Below, piece after piece: positions 4,864 through 59,844 of a stretch of DNA of 64,000 nucleotides; position 1 is the stretch's first letter, and every line of letters begins with the position of its first letter. The stretch comes from Centroscyllium fabricii (Eukaryota), in NCBI GenBank assembly GCA_051313645.2, contig JBNRSN020000031.1, positions 18,662,001-18,726,000 on the forward strand. Direction: 5' to 3'. Below the pieces are notes generated by a model. The model did no database searches, was not told where the DNA came from, and saw nothing but the letters and a program-made list of their open reading frames with translations. The position numbers were made by a program, and so were the translations under genes.

Positions 4864-5335
4864 CAGGTTGAGCACCGGAAATCCGGCACGGGTGGGACCA
4901 GGCCCGTGCCGGGAAAGTGAAAAAAACGGCAGAATGAAGTCGGTCAGTGCATGCGCGCACCATGCAAAATGGCCATGCGCACAACATTGGACATGGCCGC
5001 CGAACGTCTTTGTGGAGTCTCAGCTGCCTCCTGATGACGGCCTGCAGGCTGCTCCGGGAAACCGCGCGCTTCACCTTGGCGGGCGCTCGGGACTCGCACA
5101 TTCAAAACGCGGCGCGGGCCGCCGCACCCTGACGCCACGGAAGGCCCGGCTCGTCCGGCGGCCGTTTTGAATGATCTGCGCATGCGCTCGCCGTTCGGCG
5201 GCGCATGCGCAGATCATTCGCCGAAGCCGCAATCGCGGCTGCCATTTTGCGCATGCGCAGTGCAGTCGGGGCAATTTGTTCCGGCAGACTGAAGCTACCG
5301 GCATTTCGGGTCACGGATTTTCGGTGCTCAACCTG
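4864..5335. mobile_element. Tigger/pogo-like MITE (TA TSD)
   Basis: TIRs CAGGTTGAGCACCG/CGGTGCTCAACCTG flanked by TA. Removing it and one TA restores the LINE codons GTG GTG TAT TTG GAT (VVYLD). Confidence 0.9.
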
Positions 5336-5780
5336 TATTTGGATTTACAGAAGGCATTCGATAAGGTGCTACATAAAAGGATACTGCACAAGATAAGAGC
5401 TCACGGGGTTGGGGGTAATATATTCGCGTGGATAGACGATTGGCTAACGAACAGAAAACAGAGAGTCGGGATAAATGGGTAATTTTCAGGTTGGCAAACT
5501 AACTAGTGGGGTGCCACAGGGATCAGTGCTGTGGCCTCAGCTGTTTACAATCTATATTAATGACTTGGAAGAAGGGACCGAGTGTAATGTAGCCAAATTT
5601 GCCGATGATACAAAGATAGGTGGGAAAGCACGTTGTGAAGAGGACACAAAGAATCTGCAAAGGGATATAGATAGGTTAAGTGATTGGGCAAAAATTTGGC
5701 AGATGGCGTATAATGTGGGAAAATGTGAGGTTATCCACTTTGGTAGGAAAAATAAAAAAGCAAATTATTATTTAAATGGA

Positions 5781-6008
5781 CAAATGCAAGAAGTCACAAC
5801 ACCAGGTTATAGTCCAACAGTTTTATTTGAAATCACAAGCTTTCGGAGCGCTGCTCCTTCGTCAGGCGAAAGAGAACTTCTCTTACACCTGAGGAAGGAG
5901 CAGCACTCCGAAAGCTTGTGATTTCAAATAAAACTGTTGGACTATAACCTGTTGTTGTGTGACTTCTTGCATTTGTCCACCCCAGTCCAACAGCAGCATC
6001 TCCACATC
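5781..6008. mobile_element. Penelope-like inverted (hairpin) insert, family A
   Basis: ~100-bp inverted arms, 14-bp direct duplication ATTATTTAAATGGA, hammerhead-like cores on both arms. Confidence 0.7.
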
Positions 6009-6111
6009 ATTATTTAAATGGAGGGAGACTACAAAATGCTGCGTTACAGAAGGAGCTGGGGATCCTTGCACATGAAACACAAAGTTAGCATGCAGGTACA
6101 GCAAGTAATTA

Positions 6112-6461
6112 CACAGAAACACAGAAGATAGGAGCAGGAGTAGGCCATTTGGCCCTTCGAGCCTGCTCCACCATTTTTAATGAGATCGTGGCTGATCATC
6201 CAAACCCAACACCCCCCTCTCCCCGACACCCCCAACTCTAAGAACGATATCTCATACACATACTCTTGGGCAATTTTTAGTATCTCCAATTCGCCTAACC
6301 TACATGTCTTTGGGTGGTGGGCGGAAACCGGAGTACCCGGAGGAAACCCACACGAACACGGGGAGAACATGCAAACTCCACGCAGAGGGGTCTCTGGCCA
6401 AGCAGGATTCGAACCCAGGAGCTCCTTATTGCGGGGCAGCAGTGCTAACCACTGCGCCACC
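6112..6461 (-). mobile_element. HE1-related SINE, variant subfamily
   Basis: tRNA-like head, V-domain and HER1-type tail; interrupts the LINE. Same subfamily as the split copy at 24500/27215. Confidence 0.8.
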
Positions 6462-7580
6462 TTAGGAAGGCAAATGGAATGTTGGCCTTTATTGCAAATG
6501 GAATGGAGTATAAAAGTTGGGAAGTCCTGTTACAATTGTACAGGGTATTGGTGAGACCACACCTGGAGTACTGCGTACAGTTTTGGTCTCCTTATTTAAG
6601 GAAGGATATACTTGCATTTGAGGCAGTTCAGAAAAGGTTCACGAGGTTAATTCCTCAGATGAACGAGTTATCTTATGAAGAAAGGTTGAGCAGGCTGGGC
6701 CTATTGGAGTTTAGAAGAATGAGGGGATCTTACTGAAACGTATAAGATTCTGAGGGGGCTTGACAGGGTAGATGCCGAGAGGATGTTTCCCCTCGTGGAG
6801 GAATCAAGAACTAGGGGACATAGTTTCAGAATAAGGGGTTGTCCATTTAAAATGGAGATGAGGAATTTCTTCTCTGAGGGTGGTGAATCTTTGCAATTCT
6901 CTTCCCCAGAGAGCTGTGGAGGCTGGGTCATTGAATATATTTAAGGTGGCGATAAACAGATTTTTGAATGGTAAGGGAGTCGAGGGTTATGGGGAGCGGG
7001 CAGGGAAGTGGAGTTGAGGCCAAGATCAGATCAGCCAGGATCTTATTGAATGGCAGAGCAGGCTCGAGGGGCCAAATGGCCGACTCCTCCTATTTCTCAC
7101 GTTATGTAGAACAAAACGTGCCGTTAAACTTTGACTGATAGCTGTTTGTGATAACCAGTGCAGGTGGAGGTACATGAAGTCTTTATTTTTAAGCTTTCAG
7201 TCATGAATTTTAAAAATTTTAAATAAAGCACGGCACAGAAAGAAACCAGATGTAAGATGTTTGAGAATATCCTCTGACAAGGTGCATAAATCGGTCCCTA
7301 GGAAGTTTCAGCAGTGTAAAACGCACAAAACCTTCGATAGGTTTAAATTCACTCTGCATTTATGTACATGCTCTGCTCTCAGATCCTTAAGCAACAGGAA
7401 ATGTTTCTTGAATGCATTTCCACATTTGGTTCGTTCGGACCCTGCGTAGTGTGTTTTTAGAAAAAAAGGCCACTGCAGAATAATCTTATCTCTGATCTTG
7501 AAACTGCAATTCTTAGATGTACACAGGGTTCCAGGTCATCCACATGCCATAAGAAGCAATTCGTTAATCACATTATTTTG

Positions 7581-7780
7581 GAAGTCACACAACACCAGGT
7601 TATAGTCCAACAGTTTTATTTGAAATCCACAAGCTTTCAGAGAGCTGCACCTTCATCACCTGACAAAGGAGCAGCGCTCCGAAAGCTTGTGATTTCAAAT
7701 AAAGCTGTTGGACTATAACCTGGTGTTTGTGTGACTTCTTACATTTGTCCACCCCAGTCCAACACCAGCACCTCCACATC
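7581..7780. mobile_element. Penelope-like hairpin insert, family A
   Basis: Same inverted arms and CATTTGTCCACCCCAGTCCAACA tail as 5781-6008. Confidence 0.7.
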
Positions 7781-10709: not shown

Positions 10710-11376
10710 CGGGCTGGGCACCGGTAAACCGTCACCCGATGGTCCGGGCACCTTCATTGGTCCGGCACGAAATCGAAGCAGCGGTCTTCAGTTTGCCGAG
10801 CAGCCGCTTGGCGGCGCCAGCATTTCCCACGGTTTGGTTTGCTGGTATTTTAAGTGTTCTATCCCCGGGCTCCCTCCCGGGGAGTGTTCCACCCACACAC
10901 TCCAGCCCCGTGGAGTGCTCTACCGTGCGCTCCGGCCCCGTGGAGTGCTCTTTGGCCTGTTCTACCCGCGCGCTCTCCAAACATAGAAACATAGAAGATA
11001 GGAGCAGGAGTAGGCCATTCGGCCCTTCGAGCCTGCTCCGCCATTCAATGAGATCATGGCTGACCATCCAAACCCAGTGCCCGGTCCCCATATTCCCCGA
11101 TCCCTATCGAGCCTGCACCGCCACATATCCCACCCTATCCCCGTAACCCCACATATTTAATCCCCCTAACACTAAGGGTTAATTTATCCTGGCCAATCAA
11201 CCTAATCCGCACATCTTTGGACTGTGGGAGGAAACCGGAGCACCTGGAGGAATCCCACGCAGACACGGGGAGAATGTGCAAACTCCACACAGCAAACCTT
11301 CAGTGGTTCACAGTTTTCAATGGTCCGGCACCGTCATGGTCCCGAGGGTGCCAGATTACACCCGGTGCTCAACCTG
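10710..11376. mobile_element. Tigger-like MITE interrupted by a HE1-like SINE (10980-11292, - strand)
   Basis: Degenerate left TIR after TA; right TIR CGGTGCTCAACCTG+TA; interior related to the 12566 and 55910 copies. Confidence 0.75.
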
Positions 11377-12565: not shown

Positions 12566-12870
12566 CAGGTTGAGCACTGGTAATCCGGCACGAATCGAAA
12601 CCGGCGGTCTTCAGTTTGAGGAGCAGCTGCTCGGAGGTGCCACCGTTCCCTGCAATGGGCGGGCGAGCGCCGATGGCATCGGGCGTTTGGGTTTCTGCTT
12701 GTTAGTGTTCTATCCCTGGGCTCCCTCTCGGGGCGTGTTCTACCCACGCGCTCCGGGCCCCGGGGAGTGTTTCACCCGCGCGCTCCCCTCGAACCTTCAG
12801 TGGTTCGGAATTTTCAATGGTTTGGCACCAGCCTGGTCCCGAGGGTGTCGGATTACCGGTGCTCAACCTG
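12566..12870. mobile_element. Tigger-like MITE
   Basis: CAGGTTGAGCACTGGTAATCCGGCAC ... GATTACCGGTGCTCAACCTG+TA. Confidence 0.85.
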
Positions 12871-13580: not shown

Positions 13581-14166
13581 CAGGTTGAAGTTCATTAATC
13601 CGGCAGGGTCGGGTCCAGCACCCTGCCGGATTGTTGAAAACGCCGAATTAGTGAAGTCACGGAGAATATGCGCAGAACATTCAAAATGGCCGCCGCGAAA
13701 TTTTCAATGCTCTGCGCATGCGCTCGCCGGTACCTGGCAGTTGATTTTCGGCCCAAGGGTCGGGTGGAACTCGCACTCGATTCTGCTGCGGGTCAGGGAG
13801 CGGGCTGCACGGCTCCAGCGGGCCTGAGGCCCAATGTGCGGTTCAAGCCCGGCTTCGGAACGCGGCGACGTCGGCACGCAGCCAGGCAGGAGCCTCCGGC
13901 AGCGATGGGCACCGAGCATTGCCTGTATCGCGTCCTGCGAAAGGCGGCTGGCACAACAGCTCATCTTCTGGGCCTGGGATTCACCATCGGCATCGGGGTG
14001 GTCACTAAGCCGGGATCCAGTGAGTATATGTCAGGTGAAAGAGAAGCCCAGCCCCGACGGCGGCCATTTTGAATTGTCTGCGCATGCACCGGGCAGTCGG
14101 GAAAATCTGTGCCGAACGACTGAAGCTGCCGGTTTTTCGGGTGCCGGATTAATGGACTTCAACCTG
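13581..14166. mobile_element. Tigger-like MITE
   Basis: TIRs CAGGTTGAAGTTCATTAATCCGGCA / TGCCGGATTAATGGACTTCAACCTG, TA on both sides. Confidence 0.88.
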
Positions 14167-14248: not shown

Positions 14249-14501
14249 TTAATCCGTCACGGTCGGGACGGGGACAGTGCCGGATTTTTTAAAAATCAGA
14301 ACGATTGAAGCCGGCGGCCATATTGAGTGGTCCGGGCATGTGCAGCCACGCGCGGCGGCCATTTTTTGCATGCGCAGACCAGTCGGGGAGAGGCCTGGGC
14401 ATGCGCAGCCAAGCGCGGCGGCCATTTTGCGCATGCGCACACCAGTTCAGCCAGATTCGTTCCGGACGACTGAAGTTGCCGGATTAACAGTGCTCAACCT
14501 G
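14249..14501. mobile_element. Tigger-like MITE, left end truncated
   Basis: Right TIR ...CAGTGCTCAACCTG+TA; interior with GCATGCGCA and GGCCATTTT modules. Confidence 0.8.
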
Positions 14502-15159: not shown

Positions 15160-15347
15160 ATCACTCTGTGTCGCAGCCAATCATGGTGCAGAGGCGTCCT
15201 GGTCAAGGCTTCCACGGCAGCAACGAGGTCAACTCCGTCCTGTCTCCGCGGTCTGAGAGTGGCGGGCTGGGCGTCAGCATGGTGGAGTACGTGCTGAGCT
15301 CTTCTCCCGGGGAAAAACTGGAGTCCTGCCTCAGAAAAGGGCCATTT
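15160..15347 (+). CDS. PUM1: PUM1 exon (~5): [18 protein letters not shown]...[37 protein letters not shown]
   Basis: ctctctcag acceptor, GTAAGT donor, 188 nt, in frame with flanking exons. Conserved Pumilio N-terminal motif. Confidence 0.95.
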
Positions 15348-15557
15348 GTAAGTATTGGAAGCATTTGCTTTGCAATAACACTGATCCTGCAACCGCGGAG
15401 GGGAGGGGGGAAACACACTCCCGCACATCAGCCAGTGACTTTAATGTTGTACAATGTGGTTTTTGTGCCACTCTCAATTCATCATTTTAAATTGACCCCA
15501 GCACCATCATCAGTACTTCACCCTGGTGTTTTCAGTTCAAAATGGTCTCCGAGAACA

Positions 15558-15906
15558 ATGGAAAGCATCTACCTCAAACGCTGCTTACGGAGGTCTATGA
15601 ACATTATTAAAGACCCCACACACCCCAGCCACAGTCTGTTCGCCCCTCTGCCCTCCGGGAGACGCTACAGAGCAATTTGCACCCGCACGACTAGATTTCA
15701 GAACAGCTTCTTCCCCAGGGCTGTCAGCCTCCTGAACTCTAAAAAGAAACTCCGGTACCTGCACGCCTGATAATGAACTTTACTGTATGCAATTTTCATG
15801 TAATTTATTTATTTTGTTTGCACTACTCTCGGGAGAGTCGAGTCTTCGTCTCGTTGTATTGTACTAGTACTCTGCAATGACAATAAAACTTGAATTGAAT
15901 TGAATT
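15558..15906 (+). mobile_element. Rex1/Babar-type LINE 3' end
   Basis: [23 protein letters not shown]...[19 protein letters not shown], (TTGAA)n tail, TSD GAGAACA. Confidence 0.85.
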
Positions 15907-15919
15907 GAGAACAGCCCAC

Positions 15920-16270
15920 GTTTTTAAAAATTCATTGATGGGATCTGGGCGTCGCTGGCTGGCTAGGCCTGCATTTAGTGCCCATCCCTAATTGCCCTTG
16001 AGAAGATGGTGGTGAGCCGCCTTCTTGAACCGCTGCAGTCTTATTGTTTTTTGTAGCGGTTGTTTACAACCGAGTGGCTTGCTGGGCCATTTCAGAGGGC
16101 ATTAAGAGTCAACCACATTGCTGTGGGTCTGGAGTCACATGTAGGCCAGACCAGGTAAGGACGGCAGATTTCCTTCCCTAAAGGACATTAGTGAACCAGA
16201 TGGGTTTTTGCAACAATCGACAATGGTATCATGGTCGCCATTGCTAAGACTAACATTTTTAATTCCAGAA
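15920..16270 (-). mobile_element. LINE 3'-end / LINE-derived repeat
   Basis: Left part is the reverse complement of the tail at 53890-54000 (CTCACCACCACCTTCTCAAGGGCAA..GGGATGGGCA). A related piece lies at ~42500-42800. Confidence 0.6.
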
Positions 16271-17358
16271 TTAAATTGAATGGGCAGTTACATTTGGAAG
16301 GGCAGATTCTGAAGTTCTGCTGCAAAGTGTAAGTTATGCCTACAGTTCAAGTAGACATAATTCAGACTCTGCATTACTAAAATGTCCCTTGGTTGCTTGA
16401 CAAATTATGGTTGTGTGGCAGGTCCACATCCCACTGTAGATATCTGTATATAATTCTCTCCAACAGCCTCCTAACACCTTCCGGCAATTCAACCAGGGTG
16501 TTAGGCACAAATGTAACTGTTAATGTATCCTTTGCAGGTACAGGGCTTATGGCGGGCTTTTGTGTTCAGTGTTGAGATTGACAAGAAGTAAAAGACCTGT
16601 TTTTTGTCGTACCTCCGTCTGGGCTCCCTCATTTTGTTAGGAAATTGTTCTTTTCTACAGTTCCACGGACGCTGGCTGCCCTGTATTAACTCACTCGAGT
16701 GACCATTGTTCAGATGTGAACCTTGATAAACGTTAGCAGGCATTGTGACCACAAGGAAACCCGTCCACGCGCAGCTTTACCCTCACCTGATATCACCACG
16801 CGCACAGATGCACTTCCAGCGCAGGTTGGCTGATAGTGGGTCGAAGCAGAAACCCTAGCTGTTTCGCGGCTCCATTATCTCCGAGGCGATTATAGCCCAA
16901 CCACCGCCCAAGTTAAGACTATCTCGAACCTGCCTGGCCTGTATGGCTTGGCAACTGATTGGACAAACTCTCTGAACCATTTGGGCGCTTCTCCAAGGTG
17001 ACGTCAATGGTGAAGTTGTTCAAAGCTGTGACTCATTAACTCTGCTATTGTTTATAATTTTAGCAATGTTTTACCAGTGCACCACCTTTGTCTATTGTTG
17101 ATGCTGTCTGGAGGTTAATAGCTGTACTTTCAAAATCACATTATTTAACCTCGTGTAACGGGGCTTTCCAGACTTCAGAGGAATAGTAATTAGGCTATCT
17201 TAGCAGTTCTGTGCTGTCTGACCTATGCACTTTTTCAGCTGTGTGGGTAGTGTTTAAACCGGCAGCGTGACTGTGTTGGTACAGCACTTCAGCTATGGTA
17301 TATTAAAACCGCTTGCCCTGTCTCTTCCCACACCCCCCTCTCTGCCCACTCCGTTTAG

Positions 17359-17525
17359 GGTTCTGGAGATGCTGAGACTCATAATGAAAAGGGAGACAAA
17401 AAAGGAAAATCTTCATTCGATGGGGATAAGATGGGGGACCTGAAAGAAGTGGAGGATGACGGGATTGATAAAACAAATGGTCTGGTGGTACAAAATGGCA
17501 TAGATTCTGATGTTAAGGACTTCAG
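17359..17525 (+). CDS. PUM1: PUM1 exon (~6): [30 protein letters not shown]...[12 protein letters not shown]
   Basis: tttag acceptor, GTATGT donor, 167 nt. Similar to human FDGDKLGDLKEE...QNGIDADVKDFS, a PUM1-type segment. Confidence 0.93.
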
Positions 17526-17785
17526 GTATGTAGTGTAAGGTTACAATGTTTTTGTTTCACTTAATAACATTTTTGATAAAGGTCAATAAGGCCAAGTCTT
17601 GCAATGGATTTATTGGGATATTTGTCCACTATGATTGTGACGAGTGTTTCCATTTTGGACCAATATCAGAATTTTCATATCCATTAACACCGAAAACAAA
17701 AAATATTACAGATGAAAGTATTGCATTCTGTCCAAAAGCTTGCTTCATGCTCCAATGCTGTTATCGGAATAGCACATTCCGATCA

Positions 17786-18035
17786 TGTGGTAAACCGGTT
17801 TACCACGAATACTGTATTGTATATAGTTACCTCTTGTCCACCTGGGATCTACCTGGGATGCCTCAGCCGGCTTCGCCTCCTGGCTCCACCCACAGACGGT
17901 GGTATAAAGGTGGCAGCCCTGCTGACCTCCTGGCATTCCAGGACCAGATAGTGACAAGACCTGTACTCCAGTTCTTTGTTAATAAAAGCCTCAATTACTT
18001 AACTTCGCCGACTCGCAGTAATTGATCGTGCATCA
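17786..18035 (+). mobile_element. Solo LTR
   Basis: TG...CA termini, 5-bp TSD GATCA on both sides, internal TATAAA (~17903) and AATAAA (17981). Confidence 0.8.
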
Positions 18036-19224
18036 GATCACATGACTTGCCACACCATGAGACTCTACCCAGAACACGACACTACATACACCACCTTTGA
18101 GTGGCAAATGGCAGCATTTCCTGGCAGGCATGAAAACATTAACCAAGTCAGCCCCCCCCCCCCCCCCCAAAAAAGCCCACTGGCATCCAGAAATTGAATA
18201 TTAACTTTGGAGGTACAATTGACTGAAGCGGAAGTGTCTAATAAAAAGAAAATCAACATATGTTGTTTTTTACAGCACCAGCAATTGCCCAGTCCAACCG
18301 TGACAACTTTTGCTGTGCTGATTCATGCTCCATTAACAATAAATAAATAAACTCCCTTTCTCATTCACATCCAAGTCCACTAGCGCAAAATAAATAAAAT
18401 GATATAAACTTGCCCGAGACCACAGTTTGATTATTGGGTGTCGTTTTGGGCTGCACACTGCAGGAAGGATGTCGAGGCCGTAGAGCAGGTTCAGGGCTTT
18501 CGCTTACTTGCCCGGCGGCGCATTTTACTTGCCCCGGGCAAGCGGTTATGTCGCGCCCTGGCACATGGTATTCGAGCTATTGCTCGTGTGGCGGTTAAAC
18601 ACCAACGTGGACTGGTTGGGTGGAATTGCCTGTTTCTTTGTTAAGATGCAGTAACAAGCCATTCCCCTGTCACTCCTTCACTGCATAAACTTCCAGGATT
18701 GATGCATCTTGGATGTTGTAATCTTGACAAGTGGTAAGGATTCTAGGTTTTTTCTTCTATTATAGTACTGCGCTCCATTCAGGACATAAGTACCATTGTA
18801 CAAGACCAAAATCTCACTGCTGGAAGTCATTGTTCTTAACAGCATAACAGGAAGTTAGAATGCACCATACATAGAATGTGGTGTTGATGCTTGTTGAAGG
18901 CAGTATTTTTCCACTTGTGAAACAAACATTTTAGTCAAGTGTGTATCTCTGCAGTACAGTGCTGGGTTTAATCTACCAGCGTGGAAGACCTATTTCACTC
19001 CTCAATTATTGGTCTTGGCAGGAGGGAAGGAGAGACGCAAGCTGTGCAATATCTTCTATGCAGTCGAGACCTTTTCAGCCCTCGTGCACACCTGCACCCA
19101 GCAATATTTTCAGAGTAAGGAGTAGAGAGGTGGAGGCAATGTGATTCTGTACCCAGTTGCTGCGGGGCGTCCAGCAGTGTCACAGGGTGACTCACTGTCT
19201 TGGCCAATCGGGAGAGGTGTTAGG

Positions 19225-19450
19225 AATCACTTCTTCACATAAAGGGCGGTAGAACCGTGGAACTCTTCTCCCACAAAAAGCTGTAGATGCTCGCTCAGTT
19301 AATTTTAAATCTGAAATCGATAAATTGTTTGCTATGAAGATATGGAGCCAAGGTGGGTGGATTGAGTTAGGATGCAGGTCAGCCACGATCTCATTCAATG
19401 GCAGAAAAGGCTATAGGGTCTGAATGGCCCACTCCTGTTCCTATATTGTG
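19225..19450 (+). mobile_element. CR1/HER1 3' fragment
   Basis: Degenerate tail matching 3410-3635. Confidence 0.6.
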
Positions 19451-19759
19451 TTCCATTCTCTTATGCTGCGTACCTTTCACTTGATGCTTGTCCTAGTGGC
19501 ATAGTCAAAATCTCACATTTGCTGTGTACAGAATTATGGGTGCTAACTTATGTCCCCCCATAAATCCATGGGGTAAGCTGTTGGTATATCAACGTGCTTG
19601 GCCATCAGGCCACAATCCCCTCTTGCAGCTTGGTCAACAGCACTTCTCTCCCTGCAGTGTTAAATATCGATTAAAACATTAAGTTATATTTAACTTTCCG
19701 GCTTTGAACTGTGCATTAAAAATGTAGGTTTCAAATTCTGGAAATTTGCCATTACTTAG

Positions 19760-20410
19760 AATCTACAGCACAATTAGGCCATTTGGCTCAACAGATTTAG
19801 GCCGATGTTTATAATCCACACGAGCCTCCTACTCACATTACCTCTTTCCACACAGTTCCTATATCCCTCTATTCCCGTATCCCTCATGTATTCATCAAGC
19901 CTCCCTTTAAATGCACCAATGTTCTCTGTTTCAACCACTCCATGAGTTCCATATTCTCGCCACTCTGATACTCCTCCTAAATTCTTTATTTGATCTGTTG
20001 GTGGCTGTTCTATTTGTGCTCCTTTGTACTGGGCTCCACCACAAGTGGGAACAGTTTCTCCACATCGCCCTATTGAACCACGGCATAAGTTTTTAAAGAC
20101 CTATCTGGTCTCCTTAGTCTTCTCTTACAGAGAAAAGCACCCCAGCCTGCTCAATCTTTCATGATAGTTGCATCCTCTCAATTCTGATAACAGCCTTGTA
20201 CATCTTTTCTGCACTTTCTCCAGTGCTTCAGTCTCCTTTTTGCAGTGTGGAGACCAGAACTACGCACAGTACTTGTGTGTGGTCTAAGCAAGGTTCTATA
20301 TAAATTTAACATTACCTCCCTGCTTTTTTATTCTGTGGCTCTAGAAATGAGCCCCAGTACTTTGTTTAAACTCATATATGGCCTTAATCAACCGGTATTG
20401 CTACTTTTAG
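19760..20410 (-). mobile_element. Old CR1 LINE fragment
   Basis: Reverse complement encodes a degenerate RPH..YCA.FWSP segment. Confidence 0.6.
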
Positions 20411-20793
20411 TGATTTATTTGCTTTTCTACCCCATTTAATCTCTTCCCTTCCAAGGAATAAGTGGCCTCATTATTCCACTTCTGTTGAAAGGAACAGAAA
20501 AATGGTCAATTTTCCACATATATTGGATCTAACCAGGGAACACTTGCACTTTTATGTAATTTCAAGCATGTGATCCTCAATATGTTTTACATAATGTTAC
20601 ATCTGAGGAACGTTCTGTGGTTCTATTTTCCCTTTGTCAGCAGCACTTCTTTTGATTCGTATTAAATGGCTCAACGACTGCATAAGAGCAAATGTTATCT
20701 CTTTAAGCGATGTATCTTTTGTTTAAATGAGATTTTATGTTGTAGATTTTTAGTTCTATGCCATTATTGGTTCGTGGGGTGGCATTCATTTCA

Positions 20794-21074
20794 CAGGTCC
20801 GACACTTCATCCGGCACCGTCGGGACCAGGCCGTTGCCGGACTAGTGAAAAATCCAAACGACTGAAGCTTCGGCGAATGCATGCGCAGACCATTCAAAAT
20901 GGCCGCCGCGCATGCGCAGACCATTCAAAATGGCCGACGGCACATGCCAGCGGCCATTTTGAATGGATTGCGCATGCACGGCGGCCATTTTGAATGGTCT
21001 GCGCAGACCTGTCGGGGAGAAGCCCAGATTCGTACCGGACGACTGAAGTTTCAGGATTAACGGTGTCGGACTTG
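20794..21074. mobile_element. Tigger-like MITE, CAGGTCCGACAC subfamily
   Basis: TIR variant; interior repeats CCATTCAAAATGGCCG and GCATGCGCA. Confidence 0.8.
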
Positions 21075-21392
21075 TGTTAAAAAATCTAAATATTTAATGT
21101 TGCATGCTGACTATGGCTGTGCTTGACCAAGACTGCTTTTACCACTTACAGTAAAACAAACAATCCTCTGAAAAGTCTTGTAATTAAGATCTTGTATGTA
21201 AATTCAAATCTCCAGATCAACATATATTTATTTGCACAACATGGTCCCTTTTATGTTTTCTGTGACTGATTTTAAAGTTGCACAGTTGCTGTTAAATGTG
21301 CCTGTCTTCTGGTATAAGCATTACTAATAACAATGAGATGTGAGTATTTCTGTTGCATATACAAGAATGCTGACTAACGTTTCTTTGTGTAG

Positions 21393-40790: not shown

Positions 40791-40839
40791 TAGGGGAATG
40801 CGGGGAAAGTGCCGGGGAGGTAACAGAGACAAGGACGGA

Positions 40840-41598: not shown

Positions 41599-41847
<249 letters not shown>

Positions 41848-43443
41848 TAAAAACTGAACCCTGGTAGGTCGTTGTCATTTCAGATGCTGCAGTGTTTTCA
41901 CCGTCTGACCCACGAGCCTATTTACCCTGCACTAGAAGTTTTCTTGTCATAAAATAGCAGTCATAACGAATCTTCAGCTGTCGTCATGAGATATTTCTTT
42001 TACCGTGGCACTTTTGCAGTTCTTCCACCCCCCCCCCCCCCCTTTTGCTTCTAATTTTCTGACGAATATTGCGCTCTTCAAATTGAACAATCTTAGTTTG
42101 CAGAAATTAAATTAACCCTTTTATTGCACAGTTACTGCAGCTTAAACCTCACCCTGCTCTGCCCCAACTATATGCAAAGCCCCCCCCCCCCCCCCCCCCC
42201 TTCTCCTGCCACTTTCCGTGCCAGTAATCCACTGGCCTTTGTGAGTGAGATTACCTATTGGTGTCAAATTAGGGGGAGTTTTACGCTGTGAAAACACACC
42301 CAGCAGAAACTGGATTGACTCGGCCCAAATTCATTTCTCAGTTTCTGAATAACTTAAAAAAAAAAAAAAATCAACTCCCCTCAATTTCCCCCCGCTTGCC
42401 ACGCACATTCTTGCAGGAGAGGTTCTGCAGCTCAGTTTGAAAACATTGAGTTTGACGTGAGTATTTTAGCCAAAAGCATATATTGATCGTTGCATCAGCT
42501 TTGGAGGGCATGAGTTCAAATCCCAGCACGGCAAGTTATGAACTTTAATTGAATCTGTCAATGAATTGTGGGCTGGCACCAGGAACAATCCTGCCAGATT
42601 AGCGTAAAAATCAAAACCGGTTCACTAATGGGAAGAGAACCTGCGACCTCTACCCAGCCTGGTCTGGTCTACAAGTGAGAAGTCCACACTGAATTCTGAA
42701 AGACGTCTGACGTGGCAAGTCAGTCATTTGCTCGGGCAATGAGGAATGGGAAATAAAGGTGGCTTGGCCAGCATCAGCCCCAACCTGGAACACATTAAAC
42801 AAAAATTGTATTGTGGGAACGCAATCAGTAGAATCATTCACAATAAAACGATTTGTGGTTACAATGATCTCACATCAATGACCAGTTGCAATGAAAGTTG
42901 TTCAGTTTTTATGATGGTGCAACTTAACATAAAACTTAATCAAATGTTGCTCCATTTAATGGCCTAATTTAAACAATTGATTCTAACTGGACCACGTTGA
43001 TGTTTGAATTGCCCTCTGTTCGAGTGCCCCCATGATCCCCCTTAAAGGTTCAGTCAAAAATTGAAGTGTTCTTTCACATATGTCGGCCCACTTCTGTATC
43101 GTAATTATATTGTGATTCTGCAACACTAACCATGTTGTCGAACCTCATGTTTATATTGCGGAGCAGTTTTTACAGCAGCCGGTTCCATTTGAACATTGGG
43201 AGCAGGTTTGGTCACATGGGTGTCATTGATCATTGTAACCACAAATCGTTTTAAAGGGAGGGTGTCGCTTGATGTGAATTCTCCCAGCAGAATGAGGCCT
43301 GGTACAGCCCCCAGCCCAGTGATATTCCTTTAAAGGACGCAGATAATCCGATAAAGTTGTCAACCTTTCTGTTCCTGCTGCATTCCGATCTCATCGTCTG
43401 TACGTTAAACACTTCAGTGGATCTTTCTTTCTGTTTATGACAG

Positions 43444-43737
43444 TTGCCGCGGCAGCAGCCACAGCGAATGGTACAGCTGGTGGGCTAGCAGGGACAGCAA
43501 ATGGCTCCTTTCGCCCGATGGGCGGCCAGCAGCCACAGCAACAACCGCAGCAGCAGCCCACCAACAGTTTGGCCTCAAACTCATTCTACGGTAACAATTC
43601 CCTGTCTAGCACTTCACAAAGCAACTCACTGTTCTCCCAGGGGTCTGGCCAGCCTGGCAGCACTTCCCTGGGCTTTGGAAGCACGAGTTCACTTGGGGCT
43701 ACACTTGGATCGGCACTTGGAGGATTTGGCTCAGCAG
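43444..43737 (+). CDS. PUM1: PUM1 exon (~13): [17 protein letters not shown]...[16 protein letters not shown]
   Basis: gacag acceptor, GTACAT donor, 294 nt. Lies within ORF 43437..43769. Confidence 0.93.
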
Positions 43738-43895
43738 GTACATTTATAATTGTAGGAATGCAATGCTAACTGCACAACTTTAATGGTCGAGTGTTGTATG
43801 AGTGGTGTTGGACTGAGTCGTCACGTTTTCCCTGCCAGGCATGTGCCTTCACGTATTTGTTGGCTGACTTGACGAGACATTATTCAAAGACTTAA

Positions 43896-44286
43896 GGGCG
43901 GCACGGTGGCATAGTGGTTAGCACCATTGCCTCACCGCACTAGAGACCCGGGTTCAAATCCAGCCTCGGGTGACTATCTGTGTGGAGTTTGCACATTCTC
44001 CCCGTGTCTGCGTGGGTTTCCTCCGGGTGCTCCGGTTTCCTCCCACAGTCCAAAGATGTGCGGGTTAGGTTGATCGGCCAGGATAAATTGACCCTTAGTG
44101 TTAGGGGGATTGAATATGTGGGGTTACAGGGAGAGGGTGAGCTACGTGTCGGTGGAGGCTCGATAGGGATCGAGGGATATGGGGAGAAGGCAGGGATAGG
44201 GTGCTGGGTTTGGATGATCAGCCATGATCTGATTGAAAGGCGGAGCTGGCTGGAAGGGCGAATAGCCTACTCCTGCTCCTATCTTC
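43896..44286 (+). mobile_element. Full-length HE1-like SINE
   Basis: A/B boxes, V-domain, HER1-type tail. Confidence 0.9.
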
Positions 44287-44672
44287 ATAGAAACTAGGAG
44301 CAGGAGTAGGCCATTCGGCCCTTCGAGCCTGCTCCGCCATTCAATGAGATCATGGCTGATCATCCAAACCCAGTATCCCGCCCCTGCCCTCTCCCCATAT
44401 CCCTATCGAGCCTGCATCAACACATATCCCACCCTATCCCCGTAACCCCACATATTCAATCCCCCTAACACTAAGGGTCAATTTATCCTGGCCAATCAAC
44501 CTAACCCGCACATCTTTGGACTGTGGGAGGAAACCGAAGCACCCGGAGGAAACCCACGCAGACACGGGGAGAATGTGCAAACTCCACACAGATAGTACCC
44601 GAGGCTGGATTTGAACCCGGGTCTCCAGTGCTCTGAGGCAACAATGCTAACCACTATGCCACCGTGCCGCCC
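44287..44672 (-). mobile_element. Full-length HE1-like SINE inserted in the tail of the previous copy
   Basis: Opposite orientation; ATCTTC duplicated on both sides, and the host tail resumes as ATCTTCTATGTT. Confidence 0.9.
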
Positions 44673-45562
44673 ATCTTCTATGTTACGGCGCACTTCAAAT
44701 GTACTTGGGAGCCAGTAGCTTAATTTTCTTGCGCTAAAACCATCTCCAAAAACAAAAGATCTTAAAGTGCCACGCAATAAGCTGATTTCTGCTTTTGTAG
44801 CATTGAGATAAAGTCTAATGACACATGTCTAGCAGGTTACAACGTGATACTTCAGGTTTGTCATGAGGCACATAATGATATCGACACGCTATCAGAAAAA
44901 TCACATCTAAGTTAATACTCTTTTCAGTGTTAATGCCAATGCATACCTTGTGTGTTAATTCACCCGTGTAGTCACCAGTATTTCTACCCTAATGTTTCCT
45001 CAAAATGCCCGCTCCGGGCACAACACAAGTTTGGAAAGATAATATCTAACTGTACTGCTGGGTGCTCTCCGTCGTTTTAAGTCGACCTAGCATGTAAATT
45101 TGGCCCACCCATCATTATGCTTCACTGAAATCCTAGTGACAGCACTGATCTTGCAGCAAGCTTAGAATAATTGCCGAGAATTTATTAGTTTTCCACCAAA
45201 AAAAAAAGTGGGCTGTTTGTCACTCCAGGGTGTACTTGGATCCTAAGCGGTAGGTAGTGAAGCAGTCCTTCTGATCTACAGAGACTAATGGTGTGGAAAC
45301 GGCATTTAATTCCATATGCAGAGCTGTCCACATGCGGAAATTGAGAGATTTATGGTCAAAAAAAGAAGCGGTTTATGCACCCATGTTAAACACATGCTAA
45401 TTTTTTTAAGAGTTGAGGTACATCAAATTGTTAACCTTTCGAAATGAAAATGAATCGATTCTTATTCCAAAGGCTTGGACAGGTCTGCATATTTTTGTGC
45501 ACACAAAGTTGATTTATTGTAGGCGATCAAAAGTAAACCCTTTTTTTAATTTTGTTTTTAAG

Positions 45563-45799
45563 TTGGAAGCTCAAACACCAGCAGCGGCACACGGAGAGAC
45601 TCCCTAACTGGTAGCTCTGATCTGTACAAGCGAACGACCAGCAGCCTTGCTCCCATTGGCCACAACTTTTACAATGGGTTGGGATTCTCCTCCTCCCCGG
45701 GCCCAGTAGGGATGCCTCTTCCAAACCAGGGTCCCAGCCACTCGTTAACACCACCGCCATCATTATCATCACACGGATCATCATCGAGCCTTAACCTGG
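45563..45799 (+). CDS. PUM1: PUM1 exon (~14): [33 protein letters not shown]...[17 protein letters not shown]
   Basis: T-rich tract with AAG acceptor, GTAAG donor, 237 nt. Confidence 0.94.
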
Positions 45800-45918
45800 G
45801 TAAGAGGGGTGGGTAACTCTCTTATTACAGATGATTTTTTTTTTGTCACAAATTTCTAATTATGCCAGGAGTTAGAACTATTGTCTGAAATATTACAGGG
45901 CCATAAAACGTGACTTTA

Positions 45919-46339
45919 CAGGTTGAGCACCGTTAATCCGGACGCCATTTGTCTGGCAACTTCAAACGTTCGGCGCGAATCTGGCCGACTGATGCGCGCA
46001 TGCGCAAAATGGCCGCCGCGCATGCCAGGCCTCTCCCCGACTGGCCTGCGCGTGCGCAGAATGGCCACCGCGCGTGGCTGCGCATGCCCAGGCCTCTGCC
46101 CGACTGCCCTGCACATGCGCAAAATGGCCGCCGCGCGTGGCTGCTCATGCCTGGGCCTACCCGATTGGTCTGCGCATGCCTGTGCCTCTCGGTGGGCGCA
46201 TGCGCAGACCATTCAAAATTTTGCGGCGGATATTTTGAATGGTCTGCGCATGCGCTCACCGAGCTTCAATCATTCGGAGTTTTCAAAAATTCGGCGCGGT
46301 CCTGGTCACGACCGCGCCGAATTAACGGTGCTCAACCTG
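45919..46339. mobile_element. Tigger-like MITE
   Basis: TA-CAGGTTGAGCACCGTTAAT ... ATTAACGGTGCTCAACCTG-TA; many GCGCATGC and AAAATGGCCGCC modules. Confidence 0.92.
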
Positions 46340-46512
46340 TACCAGCAGATGCCTGTGTGATTTTTTAAAAAATTGTTGAGCATAATTTGGATTTCTTTGA
46401 CAAAAAGCAGAAATACTATAGGAAGAAAAGTCTTCATGAATATTAAGTTGAGTCTATTGATGTAGGAGAATTGGTTGGAGAATCTTAAACTGTTCAGGGT
46501 GTTTGCGATCCA

Positions 46513-46604
46513 TTGGCGATGATGACACACTTGCCCTCACTGAGAGCTGTTGCACACTGCTCCTTTATGAGACTAATTCATGTACTCATTATGGGCTGAG
46601 CCAA
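46513..46604 (+). ncRNA. C/D box snoRNA, SNORD103/SNORD85 family, divergent copy 4
   Basis: Stem ttggc/gccaa, C box ATGATGA, same guide and D' box, divergent 3' half, D box CTGA. Confidence 0.87.
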
Positions 46605-47038
46605 GAGTGCACCTGATTGTTTCAGAATAGTCTTTGTGTACGTGTTGAGTTAGTCACAGCAGTTAGTGGGCCATAATGTCGAGCTTTGCTTTTAATGTTG
46701 GTTGTCGTATAAGATTTAAAAGCCTGTTGGCGTCAAATCTGAGTAAATCGGCCTGATTGGGGATAAAGTATATCTGCAGCCTAGCATTGCACACAAATTA
46801 AGTGTGTACCATACTTACCCAACAGCTGTAAATCACCTCACTGAAGTAAATCAACTGATGCACCTTTAAATGGAAAGCTGCCCTTTTAAAAGATCAAGCT
46901 GCTAAGAAGAACTTACAAGTGCTTCGAAAACATTGTTTCCTCTTGATTTTGTCAAACCAAGATGTTCAAAATATATAGTGCCAATGACCTCATTGGGTGG
47001 TTCAAGTAATTGCAATGTTGATGCATTTGTAATGACAG

Positions 47039-47306
47039 GTGGGCTGACAAATGGAAGTGGAAGATTTATCTCGGCGGCCCCGGGTGCTGAAGCCAAGTAC
47101 CGCAGTGTCAACAGTGCCTCCAGTCTGTTCAGCTCCAGCAGTCAGTTGTTTCCACCGTCGCGTCTGCGGTATAGCATGTCAGATGTGATGCCATCGGGGC
47201 GCAGCCGATTACTGGAAGATTTCCGTAACAACCGTTATCCAAACCTTCAGCTGCGCGAGATAGCCGGCCACATCATGGAGTTCTCTCAGGATCAACACGG
47301 CTCAAG
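47039..47306 (+). CDS. PUM1: PUM1 exon (~15): [23 protein letters not shown]...[36 protein letters not shown] (start of PUM-HD)
   Basis: gacag acceptor, GTGCGG donor, 268 nt. [19 protein letters not shown] is the PUM1 version; PUM2 has NNRFPNLQLRDLIGHIVEF. Confidence 0.97.
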
Positions 47307-50425: not shown

Positions 50426-50778
50426 CAGGTCAGACACCGTTAATCCGGCACGGGCGGGACCAGTCCGGTGCCGGACAAGTGAAAACTCCCGAACGATTGA
50501 AGCTTCGGCGAGCGCATGCGCAGACCATTCAAAATGGCCGCCGCGAAGCATTTTGAATGGTCTGCGCATGCGCTCGCTGAAGCATCAATCGTTTGGGACC
50601 ATTCAAAATGGCCGCCGCAAAGGCCGGCGGCCATTTTGAATGGTCTGCGCATGCGCTTGCTGAAGCATGAATTGTTCGGGGAGGCCCGTGCATACGCAGC
50701 CATTTCGCACATGCGCAGACCAGTCGGCCGGATTCGTTCCGGACGACCGAAGTTAGCGGATTACCAGTGCCAGGACTG
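50426..50778. mobile_element. Tigger-like MITE
   Basis: TA-CAGGTCAGACACCGTTAATCCGG; degenerate right TIR+TA; two nested palindromic modules. Confidence 0.82.
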
Positions 50779-55909: not shown

Positions 55910-56227
55910 CAGGTTGAGCACTGTTAATCCGGCACCCTCGGGACCAGGCCGGTGCCGGACCACTGAAAATTTTGAACCACTGAAGGTTCGGGGGGAGTGC
56001 ACGGTAGACCCCGGGGCCTGGAGCGCGCAGTAGAACACTCCCCGGGAGGGAGCCCGGGGATAGAACACTTACAAAACCGTAAAAAACAGAAACCCAAATG
56101 CCCGACGCCTTCGGTGCTCGCTTACCCTTCGCGGGAAACGGTGGCGCCGCCGAGCGGCAGTTTCCGATTGTGCCGGACCACTGAAGTTGCCGGACCATCA
56201 GGTGCCGGATAACCGGTGCTCAACCTG
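55910..56227. mobile_element. Tigger-like MITE
   Basis: CAGGTTGAGCACTG ... CCGGTGCTCAACCTG-TA; reverse-oriented relative of 12566-12870. Confidence 0.87.
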
Positions 56228-57480: not shown

Positions 57481-57944
57481 GTCTTTTGAGAACGGTGAGG
57501 TATTCAAGCTGTGGAGATGATTTAGAGAAGAGCCTCAAAACACAACCATGACTGTCACAAGAGATATCAGCAAAGCCTGGAGAAATTTGGGCATTTATTC
57601 TTGAAAGGAGGTGACAGAGATGATCTAGGTATATACGGCATTAAATGGTGGGAGAGGTGCAGCTGAAACACTAATTCAAAGGTACAAACTAGGAAACTTT
57701 TTCACACGGTGTGATCAATGTAAAGAATGGACTTGGGCAGAGCAGTTGGGACAACCCATTGGAATCACTTAAGCAGTTCGACAATGTGATCGGACTGTGT
57801 AGTCTTTCTGGATAGGTTGCCATCTTATGGTAATAAATAAAATGGTGATTTTTGATTACGTCATAAATTTACTCTGTGCATGTTGCTTTAAACCATTTCC
57901 CCCCGTTAAAACCCGTTGCTGAGCTGTTTGGTTTTGTCCAAAAG

Positions 57945-58070
57945 GTGTTTGCCCTATCGACTCATCCATATGGCTGTCGTGTTATCCAGAGGATCTTGGA
58001 GCATTGCATGCCTGAGCAGACATTGCCTATTCTGGAGGAGCTCCACCAGCATACTGAGCAGTTAGTTCAG
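57945..58070 (+). CDS. PUM1: PUM1 exon (~19): [42 protein letters not shown] (PUF repeat 5, start of 6)
   Basis: AAG acceptor, GTATGT donor, 126 nt. The next exon (DQYGNYVIQ...) was not found in the window. Confidence 0.96.
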
Positions 58071-58479
58071 GTATGTGCCCTCATTCACACTGAGACTAAG
58101 GCAGCTGGCAATGTATGTTGCTGTAACGTTACGCACTGGCCGGGGCAGCAAAGATAAGAGAAGCAAGACTCAACGCTGGCTGTTATGTTTCCCAATTGAA
58201 GTGTCTTCGATAAACCATGACATCTGACCCACTTCGAAATGCAGCAGCCCTATTAGACAGTGACTCTGAATCTTGACTTGCACTAATATAGTCGTGCACA
58301 TCAGACTATCTGCTGGCCTGAGACTCTATTCTGGTGTGCTTGGATTCCAGTTCAAGAGTATTGATATTATGGCAGTGCAGGTTTCAGAAACCTTCAACAC
58401 AGGGTAACTCAAAGTTCACACAATCGGCCACGTGTAGTTTGAGAGTTTTGATTATTTGTTGATGATTCTGCCATCGCCA

Positions 58480-58790
58480 TTTACATCTCATCAAGAGTCA
58501 TCTTTTGTTTCTTAACTTGTCCCATTACCATCTCCTTTTGCCTCGCACCATCATCCCTTTTGTCATTTAATCTCTCCTGCCTTCCAACTTATCACAGACC
58601 TTCCCTTTTGTTCTTTCCTCCCCTCCCCCCCTCTCCCTGCCCTCTACACTTGCTTAAAAATCTGTTACTTCCAGTTCTGACGAAGGGTCATAGACCTGAA
58701 ACGTTAACTCTGTTTCTCTCACCTTGATGCTGCCCTGGCCTTTTCCCAGCCTTTTCTGTTTCATATTTCCAGCATCCACAGCATTTTGCT
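58480..58790 (+). mobile_element. Penelope-like pLTR fragment, family B, with intact hammerhead-like core
   Basis: Pyrimidine-rich leader, then AGTT-CTGACGA-A-GGGTC-ATA-GACCT-GAAA-CG-TT-AACT. Confidence 0.62.
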
Positions 58791-59303
58791 GTTGTGTTGT
58801 GGCACCGTTTCGCGTTGGATGACGGTTACTTTCTGACTTTGTACAAGCGGTTATTCTTCACGTGCGTCCAGGCGATGAGGGTAGGCTATTGCCCCATTTG
58901 AGGCATTGTAACTGAACTTGATGCTGTCCTTGCCTGACAGCTGTCGTGCGCACTTGCACTGGATCACGATCAGGAATTGGAACCCTTTCTGTTTGTTTCC
59001 CCGCCCCCAGCAAAACAACTTGGGTGTACTCCCAATTTCTGCCGTGCCTGCGATCAGTTCAGTTAGCACAGACCAGGAATCGAACCTTCTGCGCTGACTG
59101 ACGTCGTGTTGCATCATGTGGTGTGTTTACTCACGAGGAGGAGCCCAGCCCGCACGTACTGATGATTCAAAGTCATATTTTTTGCTGCAAGTTATTTCAA
59201 TTGTCCCAATAATTTGAATAAGCGACGGAAAGAAAGATCTTGCATTTATGTAGCGCCTTTCACGATTCAGGAAATCTCAGTGGGCTTAACAACCAATGAA
59301 GTA

Positions 59304-59844
59304 CAGGAAACTCTTTGGTATCCGGCACCGACGGGACCGGCCTGTTGTCGGTTGATCCAAAATTCCAGATGACGGCGAGGGTTATCCACCGAGGCTATTT
59401 TTAACAAAGAAAATTTTAAAAAATCAAGAAATGTGCAGTGTACAGTAATTGGGTACTCACCTGCAGAATGCTGTGTTAAATGGATGGTGGAAGATGCTTG
59501 ATTAAGTACAGTGCTGCCAGTTGAGGGTAATGCAATGCAATGACTACCAGCAGCGTGGGAGACACACAGTACCCCCTGTAAAATGGCGGATCAGAAGAGA
59601 CTACCGGCAGCGCGGGAGAGCCAGACTCCTGTTACAGGGGGATTGAGGTGGTCCGACTCCCAACAGCGCCAAGAAGCCGAGTAGTGGCAGTTTGGAGAAC
59701 TACCCCCACTGATTAACTCGGCCACCACGGGAGACTCGGACTCGGCAACATTGCCGGTTATTGAGGCGTTGTTTTCGGATGAGAATTTTGCCGGTTAATA
59801 GAGAATTCCGGATATTTAGGTGCCGTTTAAACAAGAGTTTCCTG
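59304..59844. mobile_element. Tigger-like MITE, CAGGAAACTCTT subfamily
   Basis: TIR CAGGAAACTCTT/AAGAGTTTCCTG, TA TSD; removal restores the host repeat CCAATGAAGTACTTT seen intact at ~31456. Confidence 0.83.

Follow-up and report, generated by a model that had tools for sequence, protein, structure and literature searches.

A composite NRF1- and YY1-like unit near the ends of a Tigger transposon and its MITEs in Centroscyllium fabricii

Main finding

A Tigger transposon of C. fabricii and the MITEs derived from it share a composite unit, in which an NRF1-like palindrome is followed by a YY1-like site, and the motifs of this unit are conserved across subfamilies almost like the terminal inverted repeat (TIR). 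On balance, sequence comparison suggests that the unit is probably a cis-element for host factors which the transposon retains because it profits from it, in the manner of YY1 on ProtoRAG.

MITEs of the window

The window is the whole 64,000-nt stretch that was analysed, from a vertebrate genome of about 7 gigabases. Sixteen elements can be delimited between 4864 and 59844, all of them in a Pumilio gene (best match PUM1) whose coding exons, as far as they were located, span 15282..47304 on the + strand. Being non-coding and 252-675 bp long, they have the properties of MITEs. The initial annotation had described about 16 elements with shared ends and TA duplications as a single MITE family; the 16 elements are real, TA is found on both flanks in 10 of them, and the single family gives way to three Tigger lineages, with 12 elements of type A or chimeric, three of type B and one of a third Tigger. 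Three of the 16 have one decayed or truncated end, and that coordinate is approximate.

The type A and chimeric elements differ in detail. The element at 4864..5335 (- strand), which holds three exact NRF1 10-mers, matches the autonomous transposon at its ends, over 181 nt at 95% and over 143 nt at 83%, and the element at 22871..23545 (-), which has an unrelated interior, matches the autonomous left end over 243 nt at 87%. Modules are present at both ends of 13581..14166 (-), around a GC-rich interior, and its neighbour at 14250..14501 (-) has a decayed low-coordinate end, the coordinate of which is approximate. Inverted pairs of the 31-bp unit occur at 20795..21074 (-), where the ends are decayed and the start is approximate, and inverted module pairs at 50426..50778 (-). 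The element at 26308..26619 (+) is inserted within a LINE-like reverse-transcriptase reading frame. A MITE at 31057..31345 (+), with a truncated right end and so an approximate coordinate there, contains about five tandem 31-bp units, and the chimeric MITE at 33752..34139 (+) has B-like ends enclosing 3.7 tandem 31-bp NRF1+YY1 units at 33939-34053; only 21 bp separate it from the type A element at 34161..34506 (+). At 36370..36648 (+), every NRF1 copy has at least one mismatch, and at 45919..46339 (+) the module is part of a 63-bp higher-order repeat.

The type B elements, at 10710..11376 (+), 12566..12870 (+) and 55910..56227 (-), have no motifs; the first encloses a nested repeat (about 10981-11291) that we take to be SINE-like. 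The element at 59304..59844 (-), which also lacks the NRF1 motif, is an internal-deletion derivative of the third Tigger (family D; 2.38 kb, TIR beginning CAGGAAACTC), with about 90% identity. A further MITE at 29272..30033 (strand not assigned), with TIR GGCCCAGAAATT and an ATT duplication, is unrelated to the Tigger MITEs.

Motifs are found in 12 of the 16 elements, as exact GCGCATGCGC in 11 and only as one-mismatch copies in one. The 6,484 bp of the elements contain 25 exact NRF1 10-mers and 24 strict YY1-like sites, while 200 dinucleotide shuffles give means of 0.09 (maximum 1) and 0.26 (maximum 2), respectively; the remaining 57,516 bp of the window hold one of each. The CpG observed/expected ratio is 1.03 in the elements and 0.50 outside them. 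The motif enrichment and the CpG contrast proposed initially are both borne out, as is the presence of the two motifs in most elements; they are not independent modules, however. The YY1-like site follows the NRF1-like site at an exact spacing of 0 or 9 bases in 25 of 32 cases, and palindrome, spacer and YY1-like site together form one composite unit of 31 bp, repeated in tandem. Common descent would likewise give a constant spacing among members of one family.

The palindrome corresponds to the preferred, best-binding NRF1 10-mer, GCGCATGCGC with a 2-bp AT spacer (PMC10810270), so its identification as the NRF1 consensus holds. The YY1 consensus is given as CGCCATNTT / GCCATCTTG (PMC7481187). 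In the window, the YY1-like form is AAAATGGCCGCC (14 sites), in which the leading C is replaced by G and the GCCATNTT core is present. The forms quoted in the initial annotation, AAAATGGCGGC and CAAGATGGC, have no occurrence in the window, although CAAGATGGC does appear in the autonomous left end. The degenerate (N) position of the YY1 site is nearly invariant (varying in 1/30 and 2/28 ends), a point against the host-factor reading, and its variation is too small to be of use in a test.

One exact TIR pattern has 91,193 matches in the genome and a control pattern has none; small MITE copies with promoter-like motifs number in the tens of thousands, and perfect NRF1 12-mers total 120,506. The window is about 9-fold above the genome average (7 exact ends, 0.81 expected).

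The autonomous parent and its sister families

The type A parent, about 4 kb long, is represented by 14 full-length copies of 3.9-4.7 kb that carry the TIR of the MITEs (about 22 bp) and modules at both ends, with TA on both sides in 13/14. Since this autonomous partner has the TIRs and TA duplications of the MITEs, the Tigger origin suggested for them is supported. Its transposase is 578-616 aa long in 9/14 copies, with shorter open frames in 5/14, and contains CENP-B_N, HTH_Tnp_Tc5 and DDE_1 domains (Pfam matches above cut-off) and a catalytic spacing of DD32D, counted by hand on the alignment. The criteria for pogo/Tigger elements are a TA duplication, a TIR of <=40 bp, a length of 1.2-5.2 kb, a transposase of 300-977 aa and DD29-36D. 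The three domains and DD29-36D are common to Tigger and pogoR, so that placement in Tigger is tentative. The best named relatives are JRK/TIGD2-like proteins, which match at up to 55% for most of their length and whose genes derive from Tigger (PMC7386202).

Other candidates for the parent were set aside. The first transposase search led to family D, which is the parent of 59304-59844 only, and a PF03221 search led to another family; a further candidate locus proved to be a domesticated TIGD-like gene, present once in the genome, and the MITE lying downstream of it is separate. The parent also has other captured repeats and an internal NRF1 site near +680. It is covered by contigs of three runs, which are uninformative on transcription.

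In the parent, the NRF1+YY1 unit lies at +78 on the left and +86 on the right, both copies pointing inwards, and the left end contains exact GCCATCTTG and CAAGATGGC. In the MITEs, the unit retains the parent's offsets, occurs in extra copies and has also been transferred to ends of the sister family. Among 60 loci chosen by TIR alone, 40 have the module; of 108 ends, 27 have a first NRF1 site beginning at +78 and 28 have one beginning at +86. Since the module is part of the parent's own ends, a selfish cis-element is a better reading than a host cassette.

Symmetric, fixed offsets inside both ends and conservation like that of the TIR would also be expected if the type A transposase itself bound the units, their likeness to NRF1 and YY1 sites being superficial; many DNA transposons have subterminal sites for their transposase. 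Such a repeat should share sequence with the TIR and be kept wherever the DNA-binding domain is kept. The unit contains no evident TIR sequence, whereas separate CCGGCA-type repeats at +19/+34/+51, common to A and its sister family B, do share it and fit that role instead. Family B has a transposase 75% identical to that of A, near-identical HTH domains and the same TIR, yet its ends lack the NRF1+YY1 module; the palindrome also occurs in families with unrelated ends. Because of the sister family in particular, this explanation, the fallback of the initial annotation, is quite improbable.

Conservation of the motifs across subfamilies

Outside CpG positions, divergence among left ends (15 clusters) is 0.03 in the TIR, 0.06 in the NRF1 site and 0.075 in the YY1 site, compared with 0.20 in the scaffold and 0.25 downstream (p=0.001). 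Among right ends (17 clusters), the corresponding values, from a gapped alignment with gaps scored as differences, are 0.08, 0.11, 0.03, 0.17 and 0.29 (p=0.006). Both p-values are optimistic, since most clusters are single copies sharing ancestry. An ungapped test of the right ends gave the reverse outcome (motif 0.41, scaffold 0.24), but register shifts, together with a B end filed in the wrong group, made it unreliable. Against a host-factor role, the right-end spacer is conserved about as well as the NRF1 site (0.118 and 0.112), which a model of factor sites alone would not predict, and some right-end subfamilies have lost their first NRF1 site.

The parent could once have captured a promoter fragment that is functionless in the MITEs and was duplicated through slippage and template switching, its apparent conservation then stemming from the recurrent, recent origin of copies from a small number of masters and from homogenisation of the repeated units. 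Spacer conservation along with the motifs is consistent with such neutral carry-over, as are the parent's further captured repeats and a unit number that is free to vary among copies. The module is dispensable, and families without it also thrive: it is absent from 20 of the 60 TIR-picked loci, from families B, D, E and F and from 4 of the 16 window elements, all of which are nevertheless amplified. The motifs, however, are fixed nearly like the TIR while the bases flanking them on both sides diverge 2-8 fold more, and families of other descent have the palindrome close to their ends as well. Neutral carry-over is unlikely.

The palindrome might instead be kept for DNA structure, as a Z-DNA-capable alternating purine-pyrimidine run or as small hairpins aiding excision or gap repair. 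The strict alternation of TGCGCATGCGCA and the frequent inverted pairs of units would suit this idea, and the NRF1 copy of the Harbinger-like element sits inside a hairpin. However, the conserved letters are exactly those of NRF1's best-binding 10-mer (PMC10810270), and the adjacent YY1-like core is conserved even though it does not alternate, which makes a structural role very improbable.

CpG decay and methylation

With element 33752..34139 as the reference sequence, CpG transitions in inserted MITE copies reach 10.7% per site, compared with 1.1-2.0% elsewhere; overall, CpG transitions in inserted copies run at 5-11 times background. The motif CpGs are not spared: transitions are 8.5% at NRF1 CpGs (p=0.12 against other interior CpGs) and 17% at YY1 CpGs, and 11.9% and 22%, respectively, in copies chosen by their motif-free half. 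The right-hand rates of CpG-decay set B are noisy, because unit number varies and the right side aligns poorly. In autonomous copies, NRF1 CpGs equal all CpGs, at 2.4%. Since CpG decay is fast and NRF1 CpGs decay equally, the CpG richness of the elements reflects the youth of the copies. The proposed resistance to methylation is contradicted by these rates, and a methylation-protected CpG-island cassette is rejected.

It is accordingly very unlikely that the family spreads ready-made NRF1+YY1 cassettes that resist methylation and widely serve host genes as enhancers within introns or as cryptic promoters, even though the motifs are real, dense and CpG-rich, the window is enriched over the genome average, and 47/7,230 Xenopus MITE copies overlap liver-specific open chromatin (PMC12676858). 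Methylation blocks NRF1 (PMC9729108), the elements show no orientation bias within the Pumilio gene (7 vs 8), and the motif-bearing MITEs share introns with motif-free ones. Since inserted copies show methylation-type decay, they are probably silent and not working host promoters.

NRF1 palindromes in other families

Subterminal NRF1 10-mers are also present in other families. The MITE at 29272-30033, which we take to be PIF/Harbinger-like, has one at 29937-29946, 88 bp inside its right end; the family has the 10-mer at +88 and 7,147 exact ends. Membership of PIF/Harbinger would call for a 3-bp duplication, a GGC-type TIR and an autonomous partner; of the 12 copies in which both flanks can be read, 6 have the same 3 bp on either side. 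A CpG patch at 29850-29990, which resembles a host promoter, is a repeat. Tigger C, a second Tigger family with the site, has 10-mers at +80 to +106, and hAT-like families at +83, +65/+115 and +46. NRF1 exons are present in the genome, one DNA-binding-domain exon differing from human at 3/56 residues.

A further, though doubtful, possibility is that the cut-and-paste transposons of this genome have convergently come to require a host factor, NRF1, at a site some 80-90 bp in from the end. Unrelated pogo, Harbinger-like and hAT-like families would then each rely on NRF1, joined by YY1 in Tigger A, as a licence that is sensitive to methylation and gives the transposase access to fresh, unmethylated ends. 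If so, motif methylation would gate transposition itself and not only transposase expression, and such elements would supply nearly all of the perfect NRF1 12-mers of the genome.

Comparison with known systems

Tigger A resembles described Tigger/pogo MITEs (PMC7386202) in its TA duplication, short TIR, domains and DD32D, and differs in having a host-factor-like module at both subterminal ends, in one lineage only and absent in its sister. No such module is found in the available text of that account of the Tigger family, and a literature search, outside which most subscription papers lie, returned no report of NRF1+YY1 modules in Tigger or shark MITEs.

The closest parallel is lancelet ProtoRAG, whose TIRs contain the 9-mer GCCATCTTG, a site bound by YY1 (Liu et al. 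2020, PMC7481187); the exact 9-mer also occurs in the left end of the Tigger A parent. The ProtoRAG ends are the element's own promoter, and the host factor affects both transcription and end handling. ProtoRAG belongs to another superfamily, and there YY1 binding has been demonstrated and represses transcription and transposition (PMC7481187), whereas in Tigger A the YY1-like site, known from sequence, accompanies an NRF1 palindrome some 80 bp from the end and has been amplified in MITEs. In mouse IAP LTRs, CREB1 binds a CRE site only when it is unmethylated (PMC9729108); here too, a mobile element would have a housekeeping-factor site for its own use that is shut by motif methylation. The IAP LTR is a retroelement promoter, while Tigger A is a cut-and-paste element with symmetric sites, non-coding derivatives included. 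Transposons have likewise dispersed transcription-factor motifs in the genomes of Xenopus, where MITEs were domesticated into liver enhancers (PMC12676858), and of Poecilia picta, whose X has repeats with YY1 motifs (PMC10760456). In those studies ATAC or bisulfite data support use of some copies by the host, whereas the copies here show methylation-type sequence decay and give no sign of host use. The NRF1 of the Xenopus paper is the ER-sensor protein of the same name (PMC12676858).

Proposed role and implications

As a selfish cis-element, the unit at the parent's subterminal ends would likely recruit host NRF1 and YY1. In fresh unmethylated copies, or in a hypomethylated germline window, these factors would open the ends and thereby drive or tune transposase transcription, and YY1 may also help the transposase to handle the ends, as on ProtoRAG. 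A master that retained the sites would give rise to more copies, and this would account for their conservation in MITEs that code for nothing. Once a copy has inserted, NRF1 would be blocked by methylation, leaving the sites to decay neutrally.

Should the sites prove inert, NRF1 matches of transposon origin would still overwhelm any motif-based prediction of promoters in this genome, and the copies offer a large pool for occasional co-option. Since families A (with the module) and B (without it) form a natural pair with near-identical transposases and TIRs, the question is testable in a cell-culture transposition assay. If NRF1 and YY1 do act on the ends, the retention of housekeeping-promoter motifs by non-coding MITEs would be explained, motif methylation would be linked directly to DNA-transposon silencing, and the single case of YY1 on ProtoRAG would be extended to a mainstream superfamily.

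Elements in the window

Sixteen elements are delimited in the 64-kb window (G000:C834:18662001-18726000, C834 being this contig of the 7.2-Gb genome), which also contains coding exons of a Pumilio gene whose best match is PUM1. To judge by its SINE- and CR1-like repeats, the genome is apparently that of a shark. TA is present on both sides of 10 of the 16 elements, and 12 carry the NRF1-like and YY1-like motifs. The 6,484 bp of the elements hold 25 exact copies of GCGCATGCGC and 24 strict YY1-like sites; dinucleotide shuffles (200 runs) average 0.09 and 0.26, and the remaining 57.5 kb has one of each. The CpG observed/expected ratio is 1.03 in the elements and 0.50 in the rest of the window. 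The initial annotation, which described about 16 elements, most of them built from motifs, and CpG-rich on a CpG-poor background, is borne out on both points. Its single family built from two modules holds only in part: the motifs are real, but there are three lineages and one composite unit. The NRF1-like and YY1-like motifs form this unit together, 25 of the 32 YY1-like sites in the window following an NRF1-like site after exactly 0 (n=8) or 9 (n=17) bases, and the unit is repeated in tandem in 31-bp arrays. Twelve elements are type A or chimeric, three are type B and one, 59304-59844, derives from family D. Because element 33752-34139 joins B-like ends to A-type units, modules move between lineages. 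Orientation within the gene is unbiased (7 versus 8, 1 unclear).

Genome-wide, one TIR pattern has 91,193 exact matches, perfect NRF1 12-mers number 120,506 versus 43 for the reversed control, and exact 28-base units number 1,593. Exact ends and 12-mers are about nine times as dense in the window as in the genome on average, and the window has 24 loose ends, whereas a 200-kb sample scattered along the contig has 11. The density of ends remains high for about 60 kb upstream and about 10 kb downstream; across the roughly 130 kb that surround the Pumilio exons (G000:C834:18602001-18736000), MITEs are several times denser than the contig and genome averages, and beyond that their density drops. 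This would be consistent with an expressed gene either attracting insertions or tolerating them. MITEs frequently lie 20-90 bp apart or nested in other Tigger elements (33752-34506 and 13581-14501 in the window; L040, L047 and L210 elsewhere in the genome), which suggests local clustering or nested targeting. The window also has a long inverted repeat of two SINE-like copies head to head (43896-44672; 210-nt arms, 93%) and a perfect 108-nt hairpin (28246-28488).

Autonomous parents

Two autonomous families that share the MITE TIR, A and B, came up when a domesticated pogo protein served as the query; they include the pogo/Tigger partner whose search had been proposed as a check. Of the 14 family A copies examined, which are 3.9-4.7 kb long, 13 are flanked by TA at each end and 9 have open frames that span 578-616 aa. 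The family A transposase has CENP-B_N, HTH_Tnp_Tc5 and DDE_1 domains with a counted DD32D spacing, and its closest named relatives are JRK/TIGD2-like. At the left end, an NRF1 site at +78 is followed without a gap by AA(A/G)ATGGC; at the right end, an NRF1 site at +86 is followed by 9 bases and AAAATGGC. Both modules are directed inwards with additional NRF1 copies behind them, and another NRF1 site lies near +680, about 330 bp upstream of the ATG. Family B, represented by 2 copies of 3.35-3.5 kb, has a transposase 75% identical to that of A, with near-identical HTH domains, and shares with A the TIR and the CCGGCA-type repeats at +19, +34 and +51; the module is absent from the ends of both copies examined. 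Set against this pair, the fallback reading that the units are transposase sites is unlikely.

The young family A copies L201-L216 (non-CpG transitions about 0.2%, open frames of 602-616 aa) and the family B copies L217-L218, also with open frames, suggest from their sequences recent or ongoing activity, and are candidates for a transposon tool. Locus L096:1421-2923, a single-copy pogo-derived gene without TIRs and with a type A MITE immediately downstream, is probably a domesticated TIGD gene.

In autonomous copy L201, 724-945 (+204 to +425) is a captured hairpin repeat related to a host repeat at 7581-7781, 5781-6019 and 28246-28526 of the window. Its changes are chiefly T>C and A>G (28/36; after cleaning, in the part covered, 16/25 versus 23/121 in ordinary copies, p=2e-5) and are concentrated in the stem. 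Subfamily L204 has fewer, so the changes accumulated stepwise. The pattern looks like A-to-I hyper-editing by ADAR that became fixed in a DNA transposon; if true, this would mean that one step was templated by RNA. Alternatively, the hairpins may have undergone GC-biased repair. Tigger B has a weaker form of the pattern in a different captured repeat.

Conservation across subfamilies

Among 60 loci chosen by exact TIR alone (those listed first for contig C1), the module is present in 40 and absent in 20. The first NRF1 site starts at +78 in 27 ends and at +86 in 28; 32 ends have none, out of 108 that include about a dozen false second ends. With CpG transitions omitted, divergence across 15 left-end clusters is 0.03 in the TIR, 0.20 in the scaffold, 0.06 in NRF1, 0.075 in YY1 and 0.25 downstream (p=0.001); across 17 right-end clusters it is 0.08, 0.17, 0.11, 0.03 and 0.29 respectively, with 0.12 in the spacer (p=0.006). 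These p-values are optimistic, since clusters have common ancestry. A test without clustering agrees with motif conservation; an ungapped right-end test gives the opposite outcome because of register shifts. Constraint is, however, opposed by the right-end spacer, conserved equally with the NRF1 site, and by the nearly invariant N position of YY1. Neutral carry-over of the module is given a minor but appreciable chance beside constraint; retention of the motif for DNA structure seems very improbable.

Decay after insertion

Across 29 copies of element 33752-34139, 10.7% of CpG sites (248/2,315) carry transitions, versus 2.0% of other C/G and 1.1% of A/T positions. NRF1 CpGs in this set decay at 8.5% (39/460; p=0.12 versus other interior CpGs) and YY1 CpGs at 17%; in 29 copies chosen by the motif-free half, the values are 11.9% and 22%. 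Ten autonomous copies give 2.4% at CpG versus 0.22%, with NRF1 CpGs also at 2.4%, and CpG transitions make up 9 of the 17 single-mismatch NRF1 sites in the window (p=1e-4). Such decay would be a signature of germline methylation. NRF1 is blocked by methylation (PMC9729108). Since inserted copies decay at CpGs, those of NRF1 included, CpG richness reflects youth, and the proposed resistance to methylation is contradicted. That the copies serve as host cassettes is, with the motif excess for it and this decay against it, decidedly unlikely.

NRF1 sites in other families

A 400-kb sample of C834 drawn regardless of motifs, half of it (200 kb) scattered and half (200 kb) adjoining the window, contains 64 exact NRF1 10-mers, 54 of which have an A/B-type TIR on their outward side. 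The other ten comprise three in Tigger C MITEs (+85, +89, +106; the parent has a near-site at +80), two in Harbinger-like ends (+88), two (+65, +115) in a single hAT-like element that has an 8-bp duplication, two at +46 in a short CAATG-ended element, both ends being visible in one case only, and one A-type unit without a nearby TIR. We presume the non-Tigger superfamily labels from TIR and duplication shape. The Harbinger-like family has at least 7,147 exact TIR-plus-NRF1 ends genome-wide, with identical spacing in 92 of 100 among the matches listed (read by eye), and its NRF1 CpGs decay too. The first 15 genomic 12-mer loci are Tigger-type in 12 cases, Harbinger-like in two and unassigned in one. 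The distribution is patchy: the site is present in A and C but missing from their respective sisters B and E, and Tiggers D, E and F all lack it. The Harbinger-like MITE at 29272-30033 of the window has its 10-mer at +88 in a small inverted repeat with CGGAAGTG, which we take to be ETS-like. The hAT-like family, with TIR CAG(C/G/T)GGTCCCCAACC and an 8-bp duplication, has copies at approximately L326:6313-6720, L054:1028-1357 and 8608-8988 of the window; some carry NRF1 10-mers, an additional copy has a site at +83, and the window copy has no 10-mer.

Role of the module

Both Tigger MITEs and factor motifs carried by transposons belong to known kinds (background literature: PMC7386202, PMC7481187, PMC10810270, PMC3820735, PMC12676858, PMC6004289, PMC9729108 and PMC10760456). 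Literature searches turned up no paper on this NRF1+YY1 module; what is new here is the autonomous parent, the comparison of A with B, the test of constraint and the reappearance of the site in several families. ProtoRAG offers a precedent: its TIRs are bidirectional promoters in which GCCATCTTG is bound by YY1, affecting end handling, and YY1 represses transposition (PMC7481187). The same 9-mer occurs, as sequence, in the left end of family A.

The module comes from the parent ends, keeps fixed offsets, is conserved across subfamilies, is absent in the sister family and decays after insertion; the tested exon of host NRF1 is almost identical to the human one. Unmethylated ends would be bound by NRF1 and YY1, the bound ends may act as a promoter for the transposase, and a role in end opening would favour MITE masters that retain the sites. 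On balance, and with confidence a little above even, the NRF1/YY1 module may be a host-factor element kept at transposon ends for the transposon's own benefit.
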